Assembly (NCBI GenBank): GCA_043803015.1
Contig: JAZDKK010000026.1
Location: 20,707 to 84,706 of the forward strand
Reading direction: 5' to 3'
Length of the DNA stretch: 64,000 nt
From: Verrucomicrobiota bacterium
GTDB taxonomy: Bacteria > Verrucomicrobiota > Kiritimatiellia > CAIQIC01 > JAGNIJ01
The position numbers and the translations under genes are program-made. Position 1 is the first letter of the stretch. Every line of letters starts with the position of its first letter. This document shows, one piece after another, positions 50,166 through 55,357 of the stretch. Below the pieces are notes generated by a model. It had not been told where the DNA came from and ran no database searches. It saw only the letters and a program-made list of their open reading frames with translations.

Positions 50166-50206
50166 ATCCCTTTTGATATATCCTCTCATTGCCTGTTCAA
50201 ACCAAC

Positions 50207-50234
50207 AAAAAACCCACCGCGGGTTGCGGTGGGT
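50207..50234 (-). terminator. Attenuator terminator (3:4 hairpin) upstream of leuA
   Basis: Minus strand ACCCACCGC-AACCC-GCGGTGGGT-TTTTT. Confidence 0.85.
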
Positions 50235-50259
50235 CCGTACGAAAGCCCCTCGGGCCAAA

Positions 50260-50379
50260 TCAGATGCAACACCTCGCGCCCACCGCCGCGCGGGTGTTGC
50301 CGCTAAGCAAGAGCTCCAGCGTCCACAGGCTCTGATGCTCTGTGCCAACTCCCCGGGCGATGGTCGTCGCAGGTTTCAC
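50260..50379 (-). CDS. Putative leu leader peptide, 39 aa (MKPATTIARGVGTEHQSLWTLELLLSGNTRAAVGARCCI)
   Basis: GTG at 50379, TGA at 50262-50260; five Leu codons within eight codons, immediately 5' of the 1:2 hairpin. Confidence 0.72.
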   Translation of the reverse strand: MKPATTIARGVGTEHQSLWTLELLLSGNTRAAVGARCCI

Positions 50380-50389
50380 GCTGGTAAAG

Positions 50390-50418
50390 AGTATAGGGCA
50401 GCTGCCGCGCGACGTCAA
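50390..50418 (-). promoter_or_regulatory. sigma70 promoter of the leu leader
   Basis: TTGACG-N17-TATACT on the minus strand. Confidence 0.82.
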
Positions 50419-50526
50419 TAGCCCGCCGCCGGGTGCCCCAGCTGCGCCGACGACATGAACACACCTCGCAAGGTGTGTTCATATGGCCGTAGGGGGCTCG
50501 CGCGTACGTGTCTGCACGAAGTCGCT

Positions 50527-51285
50527 TCACCCGTAGCCCGTGCCGGACGACGGCTCGGGCACGAGCCCGCCGAAGCCGCCCGCGCTGTTCCGCCTCAGGC
50601 CCGCCAGAACGAGCGCGCGGTAGAACATCGTGCGGAACCACCACGGACGGCGCACCGTCAACTCCTGCGGCGGCCCGGACGACGCCGTGTCCTTCATCAG
50701 CACGCGGATACCGGCGTCCTGCCACCGGCGGAGGACGTGCGACAGGTCGTCGCCCGGCGAGGAAACAAGGTACTGCACCAGCATCGCCGTGCGCACGCCC
50801 TGCGACAGCAGGAAATTCGCCGAGGGGAAATCCTGCGGCAGGACGACCCAGCGGTTGTCGAAGTGCCGCGGCAAGGGCTTGGCGCCCCCGGCGAGGCGGT
50901 CCGCGTCCAGGAGGAACGCCGGCGGGGCGTCCGCCTCCAGGCGCATCCCGCGAAGCTCGATGGAAAGGCCGATGAGGGCATTCATGATCCCTTCCACATG
51001 CACGAGTTCATCCATGCCCGGGCAGGTGTTGTACAGGGGAACCGGGGCGTAGCCGCGCGCCGCGAGCGCCACGCCGTACCGGACGGAGTCGGCGCCCGGC
51101 AGGTTGACGACGAGGGCAGTCTTCTCCTGCGGCGGAGGCGCCCAGCTCGTGTCGAGGCCCCGCCAGTCGGGCATGGCGCCCGCCTCCCACACGGGCCTCA
51201 GCTTGGCGAACAGGACCGGCTTGGCCCATCGGGACCAGGTCGGGCTGACCGAACTCCACATCGCATACAGCTCTTCACCGATCAT
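50527..51285 (-). CDS. Uncharacterised protein with a C-terminal GLRRNSAGGFGG motif
   Basis: AAGGAG RBS; 21 bp from the ligase stop; conserved-looking motifs W..WAKPVLF, NLPG, PVPLYN, PPAFLLD, FDNR, DFPSA. Confidence 0.8.
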   Translation of the reverse strand: MIGEELYAMWSSVSPTWSRWAKPVLFAKLRPVWEAGAMPDWRGLDTSWAPPPQEKTALVVNLPGADSVRYGVALAARGYAPVPLYNTCPGMDELVHVEGIMNALIGLSIELRGMRLEADAPPAFLLDADRLAGGAKPLPRHFDNRWVVLPQDFPSANFLLSQGVRTAMLVQYLVSSPGDDLSHVLRRWQDAGIRVLMKDTASSGPPQELTVRRPWWFRTMFYRALVLAGLRRNSAGGFGGLVPEPSSGTGYG

Positions 51286-51306
51286 CGGACTGCTCTCCTT
51301 TCCCGA

Positions 51307-52536
51307 TCACGGCGACTTCCGGCGCACCAGCACGGCGGCATCCCGGGCCTGGCCGTCGATCAGCGGGCGCTGCGCGAACCGCCCGTAGGCGCCGGCCGCC
51401 TTCCCGTCCACGGTGTACACGCCGACGCACGCGTAGCAGGCGCCGTCCGCCGTCGGCAGCGGGACCGCCTCGAAACGCCGCTGGGCAACCCAGTGCCGCG
51501 GGCGGAGGCGGACGCTGCGCACGATGCGGCGCCATTCCTTCTGCTCGGTCACGCCCTTCATGCCGATGTCCTCCCCCACCCGCCCGAAAGCCGGCTTGAG
51601 AACCCATTCGCCGTCGGTGTCCCATCGGACCTCCCGCGGGTCCAGGGTTTCCGGCAGAAGGCGGCGCCACGTGTTCACCGGCGTGCGCAGGCTGTCCCAG
51701 ACGAGAGGAAAACGCTTGGACTGGGTCAGTAGGGCGGCGCCGGGATTGCAGAGGCAGACCTGCGTGCGCGCGAAGAAGTGCGACCACCCCGCCGCGCGAG
51801 GCAGGTTCGGCAGCCACTCGCCCGGGAAGAACCGTACCAAGGCGCTCACCGGGTCCGGGCTGAATGGCGCAGTCACCCGCGCCGTGCCGTCGTCCCACCG
51901 GAGGTGGTCTGGGGCCAGCAAGCAGGTCCGGCGTCCGCGCGCCTCCAAGTGCCCGGCGAGGTACTCCATGACCTGGCGGTCATCCGTATACGCCGTGGCG
52001 TGCACCAGGCCCACGAGCCCGCCGTCAGGCGTCCCCCCGGCCAGGGCATCGGCCAGTGCCCCCGCAGGGTCGCCGCAAGGAGCACAGCCCGGGTAGTGCT
52101 CGGCCACCATGCGCGTGAACCCAGACGCCTCGATGTACCCGCCGGGCACGTCCGTGTTGGCCTCGGAGATGCACCATCCCGCCGGGGTGAGGTGGAAATC
52201 GAACCGGATGACCCGCGCGAGGGCGGGCGGCGCGTGGCCGTTGCCCGCGCCGTCCAGCGCCCGGCGGATGGCCCATGGAATCCCCAGCCGGCGCTGCAGG
52301 TCCGGTCTTCCAATGAGCTCCCGTTCCGCGGCGGCGGCTTCGTCTGCCAGCTGCGACGCCAGCGAGCTGAGGGTGAGCCACGTGGGCTCGTCCAGGACGA
52401 TCGGCGCATCGTGCAGGATCGAGACGTCGCCGACCTGCGGGTCCCACTTGCAGCAATCGAAGATCGTCCGCCGCCGGATGGCGGCGAAGGTGTCGGGCGC
52501 CAGCGGAGGCGCCATATTCCACGGCGTTTCGCTCAC
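51307..52536 (-). CDS. Glutathionylspermidine synthase-like ATP-grasp ligase
   Basis: RFDFH, ISEANTDVPGG (R-x-D and E-x-N metal ligands of GspS), QSKR, WVLKPAFGRVGEDI, WVAQRRF, VGVYTV. The GTG start overlaps the upstream TGA. Confidence 0.85.
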   Translation of the reverse strand: MSETPWNMAPPLAPDTFAAIRRRTIFDCCKWDPQVGDVSILHDAPIVLDEPTWLTLSSLASQLADEAAAAERELIGRPDLQRRLGIPWAIRRALDGAGNGHAPPALARVIRFDFHLTPAGWCISEANTDVPGGYIEASGFTRMVAEHYPGCAPCGDPAGALADALAGGTPDGGLVGLVHATAYTDDRQVMEYLAGHLEARGRRTCLLAPDHLRWDDGTARVTAPFSPDPVSALVRFFPGEWLPNLPRAAGWSHFFARTQVCLCNPGAALLTQSKRFPLVWDSLRTPVNTWRRLLPETLDPREVRWDTDGEWVLKPAFGRVGEDIGMKGVTEQKEWRRIVRSVRLRPRHWVAQRRFEAVPLPTADGACYACVGVYTVDGKAAGAYGRFAQRPLIDGQARDAAVLVRRKSP

Positions 52537-53330
52537 CAGGCCCCCAGGGAGTGGACATAGACGGCCGCGGCGACGAAATACGCCACCGCCAAAGGCGTCC
52601 CGTACACGTGCGCGGCGCGCGTGGGCGCCTCGGGCGTCGGCTTCAGCACCCGCTCCACGCCGACGGCGACCGCCGCCAGCACGAGCAGCGGCCGGGCCAC
52701 GCGGAGGAAGTCCGACACGGTGACGTCCACGGAGACCCAGTCGCCCGCCACCGCACGGCCGAGCACGAGCCCGGCGGCGATGAGGTACCCGGCCAGGCGG
52801 ATTCCGGCGGCCTCGTCGCGGTCCACGGTGACCGCCTCCGACACGTGCGAGAACAGTTCCAGCAGCCACCACAGCGCGAACAGCCCGGCCGACGCGAGCG
52901 CCGCGCAGAAGACGACCACCCACCAACCGGGGCCGTTGCCGATGTTCCCCCCGGCGAAGGAGAGGGTCAGGCCCGCGAGCGCGCCGCCGAGGGCGTGGCT
53001 CGCGGCCAGGTTGCCCCGTTCCGCCACGTCGTCGCGGCCGCTGATCCCGAACACCGGGAACAGCAGGGCGCTCAGTCCGACCCAGGCCATGCCCATGACG
53101 AGGTAGAAAAGGATGTACACCGGGCTCGTGCGCACATCGGAGGACGCGTAGTTCATGAGCACCAGCAGGAGGAGCCCGACGCAGATCAGCGGCGTGTAGT
53201 AGAGGGAAAAACGTTGCGGGTGGCCGGAGGCAAGCCGCGTGACGGTGGCCGCCCGCCAGTACCACGATATCCACAACATCAAGGCCAGGACACCGCTGAC
53301 CACGAGGGCCATCACCTCGTCTTCCGACAT
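52533..53330 (-). CDS. DUF350-like polytopic membrane protein (duplicated)
   Basis: About 8 TM segments; two DUF350-type motifs DDVAERGNLAASHALGG and EAVTVDRDEAAGIRLAG; strong RBS. Confidence 0.7.
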   Translation of the reverse strand: MSEDEVMALVVSGVLALMLWISWYWRAATVTRLASGHPQRFSLYYTPLICVGLLLLVLMNYASSDVRTSPVYILFYLVMGMAWVGLSALLFPVFGISGRDDVAERGNLAASHALGGALAGLTLSFAGGNIGNGPGWWVVVFCAALASAGLFALWWLLELFSHVSEAVTVDRDEAAGIRLAGYLIAAGLVLGRAVAGDWVSVDVTVSDFLRVARPLLVLAAVAVGVERVLKPTPEAPTRAAHVYGTPLAVAYFVAAAVYVHSLGAW

Positions 53331-53461
53331 GGTTTTCCTCCCCCCCTTTTCAGGGCTCGGTCGTGCGCTGTTCGGCAGGATAGCGTCCGCCCGCCGCCGC
53401 TTCAAAGACAAACGGCGCGCGCAGATTGCCCGCCGCCCCAATTGCCGCTAGACTTCCGGCG

Positions 53462-55357
53462 ATGAACCCCAGGCGACCCTCGAAAGCCTTCGTGCTGGCG
53501 GCCGGACTCGGCACGCGCATGCTGCCGCTGAGCCGCGACCTGCCGAAGCCGCTTATGCCGCTCTGGGGCAAACCCGTCCTCCAGCACACGCTCGAGCTCC
53601 TTCGCCGCTGGGGCGTGAAGGACGTGGTCATCAATCTGCATCACCTGCCGGGCGAGATCCTGGAATTCGTCCGGCACAACCCGGTGCCCGGACTGCGGAT
53701 CAGCCTCTCGCACGAGCCGGACATCCTCGGCACCGGCGGCGCGCTCCGCCGGGCGGCCTGGTTCCTCGGCGACGCCCCCTTCTGGCTGATCAACGCCGAC
53801 ATCGCCCTCGACCTGAAGCCGGATGCCCTCGTGAAGAAGTTTGCCGGCGGCAGGTACCTAGCCGCCGTCTGGCTCGATGAAATGCGGGGCCCGCGCACGG
53901 TGGAGATGAAGCGCGGCTGCGTGACCTCGTTCGAGAGCCGGCGCCCGGGCCGCGCCGGAACATACACCTTCTGCGGACTTCACCTGCTTTCCCCCAGAAT
54001 CCTCGATTTCCTTCCGGCCGAAGGCTTCGCAGGGATCATCCCGGCCTACGAACTCGCGATGAAACGGGGCGAGCGCATCGCCGGCGTGTGCGTGCCCGGC
54101 TCGTTCTGGGCCGACCTGGGAACGCCCGAGCAGTACCTCGAGGCGCATCGCAGAAAAGGGGAGCGCGCATGGATCGGATCGAACGTGACGATCGAACGCG
54201 GGGCCCGGGTGGTCGATTCGGTGATCTGGGATGGCGCGCACCTTGCGGCGCGCGCCCGGGTGCGGCACGCCATTGTCGGCCGGGACACACGGGTTGAAGG
54301 TTTGGAGGACTACATCGCCATGCGCGCAGACCGCGCCTTGGACGCGCAGGAAGCCGCAGCGCTGGAGACGTGCGGCTGGCCGATGGAGCATCTGACCGCC
54401 TGTCCGCTCGGCGCCCGCGGGTCCGCGCGCACGTTCACGCGGATCAGGCGGGGACTCCGAAGCATCATCCTGATGCGCTACAGCCTCGAACGCGCGGAAA
54501 ACGGGCTGTACTGCGCGCACGCGCGTTTCCTTGACCGGCTGGGCCTGCGCGTTCCGAAGGTGTTGCTGGACCGACCGGTGGACCGGCTCGCCCTCCTGGA
54601 AGACCTCGGCGCGACGTCGCTCGAGGACGAGGTCCGCCGGCGGCCGGTTCAGCAGGTCCGACAGCTCTACCGCCGCGTGCTGGACCAGGTGCTGCTCCTC
54701 CACGGCGCCGGCGCCCGGGCCGCGCGCCGCTCGCCTCGGCGTAGCCCCGGGCGAAGCCTGGGCAGCAAGCTTCCCCTCATGCCGCCGTTCAGCGCCGATC
54801 TCTACCGGTGGGAGCGCGACTTCTTCGCGCGTCAATTCCTGGAGCTTCATCTTCATCGGCCGGCCGGCGAAATCCGCGGTATCCGGCGCGACCTGGCGTG
54901 TGTTGCGGCGCGTCTTCTCCGGGCGCGACCCGTCCTGATTCACCGCGACCTGCAGTCCAGCAACATCCTGCTGCCGGGCGGCCGGCCCGCCTTCGTGGAC
55001 TTCCAGGGGATGCGCATGGGCGCGGCCGCGTACGACCTGGCTTCGCTGCTCTGCGACCCGTACGCCGGCCTCGCCCCGCACCTGCAGGAGGAGCTCCTGG
55101 AGTACTACGCCGCGCGCGCGGATGACGGCGCCGCCGCACGCCGCCTCTTCTGGTGGGCGGCCATCGAACGGCTCGCGCAGGCCCTCGGCGCGTACGCGCG
55201 GCTGAGCCGGTTGCCCGGCATGCAGTCGTTCCGCCGTCACATGCCGACCGCCCTCGCGACCCTCCGGCGAGCCCTCGGCCGCGTGCCCGGACTGCCTTGT
55301 CTGCGCCGCTGGGCGGACGCTCTGGCCGCGCCGGGGAACGCCATTGACACCCCATGA
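53462..55357 (+). CDS. Fusion of a MurU-like nucleotidyltransferase and an AmgK-like anomeric sugar kinase
   Basis: N-terminal AFVLAAGLGTRMLPLS..LPKPL, VINLHH, EPDILGTGG, INAD, W.DLGTPE.Y. C-terminal GS.R.F.RI, LLEDLG, IHRDLQSSNIL, VDFQG...G...YDLASLL.D. Confidence 0.85.
   Translation: MNPRRPSKAFVLAAGLGTRMLPLSRDLPKPLMPLWGKPVLQHTLELLRRWGVKDVVINLHHLPGEILEFVRHNPVPGLRISLSHEPDILGTGGALRRAAWFLGDAPFWLINADIALDLKPDALVKKFAGGRYLAAVWLDEMRGPRTVEMKRGCVTSFESRRPGRAGTYTFCGLHLLSPRILDFLPAEGFAGIIPAYELAMKRGERIAGVCVPGSFWADLGTPEQYLEAHRRKGERAWIGSNVTIERGARVVDSVIWDGAHLAARARVRHAIVGRDTRVEGLEDYIAMRADRALDAQEAAALETCGWPMEHLTACPLGARGSARTFTRIRRGLRSIILMRYSLERAENGLYCAHARFLDRLGLRVPKVLLDRPVDRLALLEDLGATSLEDEVRRRPVQQVRQLYRRVLDQVLLLHGAGARAARRSPRRSPGRSLGSKLPLMPPFSADLYRWERDFFARQFLELHLHRPAGEIRGIRRDLACVAARLLRARPVLIHRDLQSSNILLPGGRPAFVDFQGMRMGAAAYDLASLLCDPYAGLAPHLQEELLEYYAARADDGAAARRLFWWAAIERLAQALGAYARLSRLPGMQSFRRHMPTALATLRRALGRVPGLPCLRRWADALAAPGNAIDTP

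Follow-up and report, generated by a model that had tools for sequence, protein, structure and literature searches.

The ATP-grasp ligases YgiC and YjfC of Escherichia coli, which RefSeq names peptide-spermidine ligases, have been reported to join spermidine to peptides (PMC11762307, citing Pederick et al. 2023), and neither of them acts as a glutathionylspermidine synthetase (Sui et al. 2012, cited in PMC11762307 and PMC12506659); according to a 2025 review their physiological substrate is unknown (PMC11762307). The DUF1190 proteins YgiB and YjfM are encoded beside YgiC and YjfC, in the gene pair ygiB-ygiC and in yjfL-yjfM-yjfC, the end of yjfIJKLMC. A comparable combination of a ligase related to glutathionylspermidine synthetase (GspS), a DUF350 protein of the YjfL family and a DUF1190 protein has been described in operons linked to PspA (Ravi et al. 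2024, PMC11237479). Here we report a three-gene cassette, memA-ligB-tailC, that is a variant of this known but unexplained theme of DUF350 protein, tail protein and YgiC-type ligase. It lies in a stretch of 64,000 nucleotides from a Verrucomicrobiota bacterium (assembly GCA_043803015.1, contig JAZDKK010000026.1, positions 20,707 to 84,706), hereafter the window, and encodes a membrane protein (memA), a ligase (ligB) and a soluble partner with a flexible C-terminal tail (tailC). In the papers reached by our literature searches this three-gene form is not described.

Like the E. coli gene sets, the cassette brings together a DUF350 protein, a GSP_synth ligase devoid of an amidase domain and a partner whose Ser/Gly-rich, Gly-ended tail carries an R-GG[FY]G motif, and YgiC and YjfC are the best structural matches of ligB. 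There are also differences. The partner is not a DUF1190 protein, has neither a lipobox nor a signal peptide and is built on a larger and different alpha/beta core; the gene order is DUF350-ligase-partner, whereas in E. coli it is DUF350-partner-ligase; memA is double-sized, with 265 residues and about eight transmembrane (TM) segments as opposed to 133 residues; ligB and YgiC share only about 16% identity; and no PspA, DUF2491 or potassium channel genes are linked to the trio. With the PspA-linked operons the cassette shares the GspS-related ligase and DUF350, including the 8-TM forms of the latter, whereas the tailC family occurs in none of the variants described and neither PspA nor a CesT dyad is found here (PMC11237479). 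The cassette represents a stripped-down, cytoplasmic-plus-membrane version of the DUF350/DUF1190 gene sets that comprises three genes only. Its soluble, signal-less partner with a near-invariant end is a testable candidate for what YgiC-type ligases act on, which makes the cassette the cleanest available test case for their substrate. A preliminary description of this DNA, made from the letters alone, had proposed that a protein without signal or lipobox takes the place of the DUF1190 lipoprotein and retains an R..GGFG tail as in the E. coli partners, and both parts of that proposal hold in the comparisons given below; its further suggestions, namely a tail that serves the ligase as substrate or activator and a membrane protein that senses or exports, stay at the level of hypothesis.

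Linkage and distribution of the three genes

Gene order was compared across the 80 best tailC loci, drawn from about ten phyla and including Verrucomicrobia, Planctomycetes, Acidobacteria, Gemmatimonadetes, Nostoc, Elusimicrobium, Anaerolineae, Haliangiales and Sumerlaeia. Wherever enough upstream DNA was available the order was memA-ligB-tailC on one strand, with a single exception (L042), a contig of 3.5 kb on which a VapBC-like pair on the opposite strand stands directly upstream of tailC and is followed by the contig end. This pair (L042:83-839) consists of a PIN-like open reading frame (ORF) of 143 codons and one of 111 codons, and the tailC of the same locus carries an insertion of about 45 residues. 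No fourth conserved gene was found beside the trio in these loci, where the only further features were antisense ORF artefacts and lineage-specific neighbours. memA-ligB-tailC is thus a self-contained three-gene module.

The same linkage emerges from a sample of 301 genomes that belong to the window's phylum. Six of them carry tailC, none of these from the window's own family, and full-length matches to the ligB clade (E<=1e-70) occur in exactly four, which are those with an intact tailC and in which the two genes are always adjacent. Of the remaining two genomes, one (G289) shows weak and partial similarity to both ligB and tailC at roughly neighbouring positions, and the other (G231), which is 100% complete, has no close ligB and retains a mere remnant of tailC (C100:93740-94428) with an internal TAG and a change of frame, which looks like the decay of a partner after loss of its ligase. 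Most of the weaker ligB-like matches in the phylum sample (10 of the 12 loci inspected) proved to be circularly permuted ATP-grasp/alpha-E type genes with no tail-bearing neighbour and were set aside. Whether homologues of the third gene are tied to the ligase had been put forward as a gene-neighbourhood test by the preliminary description, and adjacency in the 80-locus sample and in four out of four phylum genomes answers it in the affirmative.

The GGFG-tailed variant is not rare. More than 2335 relatives of tailC are found in a large protein collection, the family counts 1204 clusters at 50% identity, and 379 species genomes contain one. Their distribution is patchy across at least ten phyla, and the G+C content of the cassette in the window (0.70-0.74) exceeds that of most surrounding sequence (0.61-0.69); taken together, patchiness and raised G+C point to the horizontal spread of a self-sufficient module.

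The ligase, its tailed partner and the membrane protein

The ligB gene (51307..52536, minus strand) encodes 409 amino acids and is the sole PF03738 gene of the genome, matching the GSP_synth profile well above its gathering threshold (55 bits, cut-off 29.3; E=1e-14) over residues 55-394. It is a synthetase domain alone: Pfam detects no CHAP amidase domain, and the NCBIfam equivalog of the bifunctional GspS, PRK10507, reaches 19 bits where 882 are required. A phmmer search with the single ligB sequence against PDB sequences returned no match, whereas a profile built from 35 homologues reaches E. coli YgiC (7uk8) over its full length with E=1e-7 and GspS with E=1e-4, in the latter case over the N-terminal half of the domain only. 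Structural comparison gives the same ranking, since the best Foldseek matches of the ligB model are YgiC (7uka/7uk8, TM score 0.75-0.76, E around 1e-17) and YjfC (7uk6, TM score 0.73), followed by GspS (2io7) and glutathione synthetases. As the preliminary description had stated, the ligase keeps the R-x-D and E-x-N pairs and the KP..GR.G loop and is free of CHAP, as borne out by Pfam and by the alignments with GspS and YgiC, in which the metal and phosphate ligands are retained: the catalytic residues R111-x-D113 and E125-x-N127 are invariant among the 35 homologues and align with R316/D318 and E330/N332 of GspS, and the likewise invariant K314 opens a K314-P...G-R-x-G nucleotide loop that aligns with those of YgiC and GspS. 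Thus ligB resembles E. coli GspS in its ATP-grasp synthetase fold and in these four residues and departs from it in the missing CHAP domain, in an overall identity of about 16% and in the replacement of the GspS segment D334-S335-A336-S337-C338, which we take to be part of the glutathione site, by D-V-P-G-G. By family and modelled fold ligB is a YgiC/YjfC-type ATP-grasp amide ligase, and peptide-polyamine ligase activity is predicted for it.

The partner of ligB belongs to no named family. tailC (50527..51285, minus strand) encodes a cytoplasmic alpha/beta protein of 252 amino acids that matches nothing in Pfam, NCBIfam or PADLOC, and Pfam scans of 30 tailC members gave no match either. DUF1190 (PF06693) is not detected at E<=1 with tailC or at E<=10 with the tail alone, whereas in the same Pfam run YgiB and YjfM match DUF1190 with E=2.9e-55 and E=2.9e-17. 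Within the first 45 residues a lipobox pattern is absent from all 263 tailC members, and no segment of the window protein reaches TM grade, the highest 19-residue hydropathy being 1.16. The AlphaFold2 (AF2) monomer model (mean predicted local distance difference test score, pLDDT, 80; predicted template modelling score, pTM, 0.83) shows an alternating beta-alpha core and becomes disordered from residue 230. A Foldseek search of the PDB with this model found no fold match (best E=0.038, TM score below 0.30), and a tailC profile searched against PDB sequences gave chance matches only; the weak top Foldseek matches, RutB, USP and biuret hydrolase, were rejected as not meaningful at E>=0.038 and TM scores below 0.30. 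The core is highly conserved: R130, D143, N144, R145, D152, S155 and D180 are kept in 262-263 of the 263 members, H183 is near-invariant (245 of 263), mean column identity across phyla amounts to 56%, and the family has no conserved Cys. tailC apparently belongs to an unnamed and undescribed protein family.

The tail itself comprises residues 230-252 (50530..50598, minus strand), with pLDDT below 50 in the monomer model, and reads LRRNSAGGFG-G-LV-P-E-PSSGTGYG, so that the window protein ends in ...LRRNSAGGFGGLVPEPSSGTGYG. Over the 263 members its consensus is L-R-R-N-S-A-G-G-F-G-[AGS]-[VI]-[VI]-P-x-P-S-S followed by a Gly/Ser-rich end. G236, G237, F238, G239 and P243 are conserved at 98-100%, on a par with the invariant residues of the core, and conservation of the tail, the lack of which would by the preliminary description have refuted its proposal, is therefore borne out. 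The tail had been given as LRRNSAGGFGG...SSGTGYG; it is indeed present in that form, although the invariant motif is GGFG and not GGFGG, the fifth position being A, G or S. The stretch after GGFG varies between 8 and 21 residues, most often numbering 13. Of the 259 motif-bearing members 231 end in G (89%), 17 in S and 11 in A; the penultimate position varies, about 63% of members having F, G or Y there. Lys is nearly absent (7 of 233 tails), and Asp or Glu is present in more than half of the tails. Among the 17,283 ORFs of at least 60 residues in the genome, tailC provides the only GG[FY]G...G-COOH end. The only other motif-like tail in the genome lies outside the window on the minus strand of contig C72, in an ORF of 265 amino acids ending near residue 2943 of its frame; this glycine-rich tail (..GGSSGGGWSGGGGGGGGGGGFGGGSSGGGGASRGW) ends in W.

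The likeness to the E. coli partners was assessed on tails taken directly from the ygi and yjf loci. YgiB and YjfM both show RGG[FY]G...GG, YjfM ending in ..SRGGYGRSSSARGHWGG, and tailC shares all the hallmarks of these DUF1190-type tails (R..GG[FY]G, a Ser/Gly-rich composition and a Gly end) although it does not belong to the DUF1190 family. Tails of this kind also occur on further proteins. At one locus of the window's phylum (L091:3679-8776, genome G291) a canonical GSP_synth ligase (E=3.5e-149) adjoins a DUF350 gene, and the two are flanked by two ORFs without Pfam matches that end in ..RGGFGSAGKSSGGSSGS and ..GRGGFGKFPGLGRADEHGGGGG (their starts are unrefined); a second locus (L088) has a similar arrangement of DUF350, RGGFG tail and ligase. 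Judged from these sequences, the tail travels with the ligase across unrelated protein bodies and not with a particular fold. An alpha/beta-hydrolase gene is located upstream at the first of these loci.

The third component, memA (52533..53330, minus strand), was identified by its ORF and ribosome-binding site, by Pfam and by its hydrophobic segments, about eight in number, as a 265-residue, approximately 8-TM membrane protein of the DUF350 (YjfL) family. The window protein itself falls just below the threshold, scoring 25.1 bits against DUF350 (PF03994), 0.9 under the cut-off of 26, and we assign it on the strength of family-wide matches, given that 30 of 30 memA family members scanned match DUF350 (best E=5.8e-14). 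An hhalign comparison with E. coli YjfL gives a weak match (E=5.5e-4) over the N-x-AA...G and E-x-I...AAG motifs. The memA family has conserved motifs of its own, RDDVxERxN, GGNIGDGPGWW and GRAVAGDW, and the number of hydrophobic segments in the window protein agrees with the 8-TM DUF350 forms described for the YjfL family (PMC11237479).

Candidate roles of the tail

GspS amidates the glycine carboxylate of glutathione. Modelled on this family chemistry, we tentatively favour a reading, to which we give a probability a little short of even, in which ligB amidates the C-terminal carboxylate of the tailC tail with a polyamine or a similar amine, and memA is the membrane tie of the pair. tailC would be the dedicated cytoplasmic partner of ligB and would present to it its flexible tail, made up of an LRRNSAGGFG anchor, a run of about 13 Ser/Gly/Pro-rich residues and a small last residue, usually Gly. 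ligB would activate the terminal carboxylate as an acyl phosphate and join it to the polyamine-type amine, in the manner of GspS and glutathione, and memA would hold ligB and tailC at the membrane, either as a docking site or as an element whose state is read or changed. That the tail is the substrate, which amine it receives and what memA does are inferences. The strongest argument for an interaction between ligase and tail is that the tail follows the ligase across unrelated bodies; the in vitro activity of YgiC and YjfC points in the same direction as regards amidation, and a polyamine is plausible as the amine because the genome encodes spermidine-synthase-like domains. If this is true, tail amidation would constitute a new kind of protein C-terminal modification and would supply a function for tailC, whose family counts over 1200 clusters at 50% identity and occurs in ten phyla or more.

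A number of observations weigh against this reading. As a stand-in for a model of the complex we used a read-through fusion of ligB and tailC of 669 amino acids, in which the intervening TGA is read as Gly (table 25), together with a block alignment of 7 paired read-through rows, 32 ligase-only rows and 35 partner-only rows. The AF2 prediction for this fusion, obtained as scores only and without coordinates, has an overall pLDDT of 85.9 and a pTM of 0.74; within it F238-P245 rises just above pLDDT 50 and forms a two-residue beta bridge, and the last seven residues stay at about 39, so that the tail is not docked with confidence in this model. No modification of tailC has been observed. Depending on the member, the C-terminus lies 8 to 21 residues beyond GGFG, and since more than half of the tails contain Asp or Glu, the terminal carboxylate is not the sole one available. 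The strongest conservation resides in the internal GGFG and not at the very end, a pattern that is as compatible with a docking motif as with a substrate. Furthermore, the tailC core has enzyme-like invariant polar residues for which a mere substrate has no need, and the E. coli tail proteins have signal- or lipobox-like N-termini, so that the tail may not meet the cytoplasmic ligase there.

Several of these observations come together in an alternative that we regard as rather unlikely, though deserving of serious attention, namely that the tail is a docking or regulatory peptide for ligB or for the cytoplasmic face of memA, that ligB joins a small peptide or metabolite to a polyamine, and that the tailC core has a catalytic activity of its own, such as that of a hydrolase which undoes or processes the conjugate in place of the missing GspS amidase domain. 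The seven invariant core residues from R130 to D180, the near-invariant H183 and the mean column identity of 56% are what an active site typically shows; conservation within the tail peaks in an internal stretch (GGFG-x-[VI][VI]-P), which alone gains order in the fusion model; and short peptides are substrates of YgiC and YjfC in vitro (PMC11762307). However, tailC matches no hydrolase or other enzyme in fold or sequence and has no conserved Cys, and a docking function leaves unexplained both the constant G/S/A end, preceded as it is by variable residues, and the same ending on unrelated proteins beside related ligases. That ligB is instead an ordinary glutathionylspermidine synthetase, or another small-molecule thiol or polyamine ligase with loosely related neighbours, we deem very improbable. 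Its Pfam family is GSP_synth, and its fold is also like those of GspS and the glutathione synthetases; yet it has only about 16% identity to GspS, the GspS profile match spans half the domain, D-V-P-G-G stands where GspS has D334-S335-A336-S337-C338, and the nearest solved relatives, YgiC and YjfC, do not function as glutathionylspermidine synthetases (Sui et al. 2012, cited in PMC11762307 and PMC12506659), while the strict three-gene synteny and translational coupling speak against a loose association.

With a flexible tail that ends in Gly and extends from a folded, highly conserved domain, tailC is reminiscent of ubiquitin-like proteins, of Pup and of the carrier proteins LysW and ArgW, the last two of which are served by ATP-grasp ligases. 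By this likeness it could be a carrier or tag whose C-terminal Gly, after activation by ligB, forms a bond with a lysine of a second protein such as memA or with an amine-bearing lipid; the near absence of Lys from the tails and the constant inclusion of a membrane protein in the module are consistent with such a role, which we consider improbable given that there is no evidence of any conjugate, that tailC is far larger than the known tags, that no deconjugating enzyme is linked to it and that relatives of ligB use free spermidine. The broadest form of our preferred idea, amidation of the tail, is a bacterial protein C-terminal conjugation in which ligB activates the terminal Gly of tailC as an acyl phosphate and attaches an amine to it. 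In its simplest form the product would be a polyamine cap, and in its boldest tailC would be tethered at the DUF350 protein through a lysine or an amine lipid, or else would carry a substrate for its own conserved pocket as LysW does; by extension, the GGFG...G tails encoded beside YgiC and YjfC would be the long-sought substrates of these two enzymes. In this generality the proposal is a doubtful one.

Gene layout and flanking region

All three genes lie on the minus strand. memA starts with ATG and has GGGGGGGAGG, a strong purine run, directly upstream; the GTG start of ligB overlaps the memA stop as GTGA; and 21 bp separate the ligB stop from the start of tailC, which is preceded by GGAAAGGAG. 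For ligB the GTG start is preferred over an ATG at codon 8, as its homologues align from residues 1-5 of the GTG-started protein. ligB and tailC share a reading frame and are separated by a TGA and seven sense codons (SGKESSP; 51286-51309), an in-frame, single-stop arrangement that recurs in 6 of about 70 other loci and is therefore not a conserved feature. About 45 nt past the tailC stop lies a perfect hairpin of 14 bp (50453..50484, minus strand) that is not followed by a U-tract; the RNA fold of 50430-50530 has -44.2 kcal/mol (z=-2.6), and the hairpin is the probable end of the memA-ligB-tailC transcription unit. No sigma-70-like promoter was found upstream of memA, and an Rfam scan of the cassette region yielded no significant match.

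Downstream of the cassette follows leuA, which has a leader of its own (50206-50418, minus strand), as it is preceded by a promoter-like site (TTGACG-17-TATACT, 50418-50390) and by a terminator-like hairpin with a T-run (50236-50210); the sole Rfam match in this leader is to Hrs13 and is below threshold (23 bits against a cut-off of 52). Three co-oriented genes with a GTGA overlap and a 21-bp gap, set apart from leuA by a separate leader promoter, are what the preliminary description had envisaged, and the ORF coordinates and the two leader elements confirm this layout. The genes flanking the cassette are unrelated to it: besides leuA they encode two beta-helix/secreted proteins, an NTP-transferase/kinase fusion, an LppM-like lipoprotein and a sigma-70-family factor. 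The fusion gene (53426-55357, plus strand), which is divergent from the cassette, encodes 643 amino acids that combine an NTP_transferase domain with an APH-type kinase and resemble a fused AmgK-MurU-type enzyme of N-acetylmuramic acid/N-acetylglucosamine (MurNAc/GlcNAc) recycling, and its end is overlapped by the start of the LppM-like lipoprotein gene.

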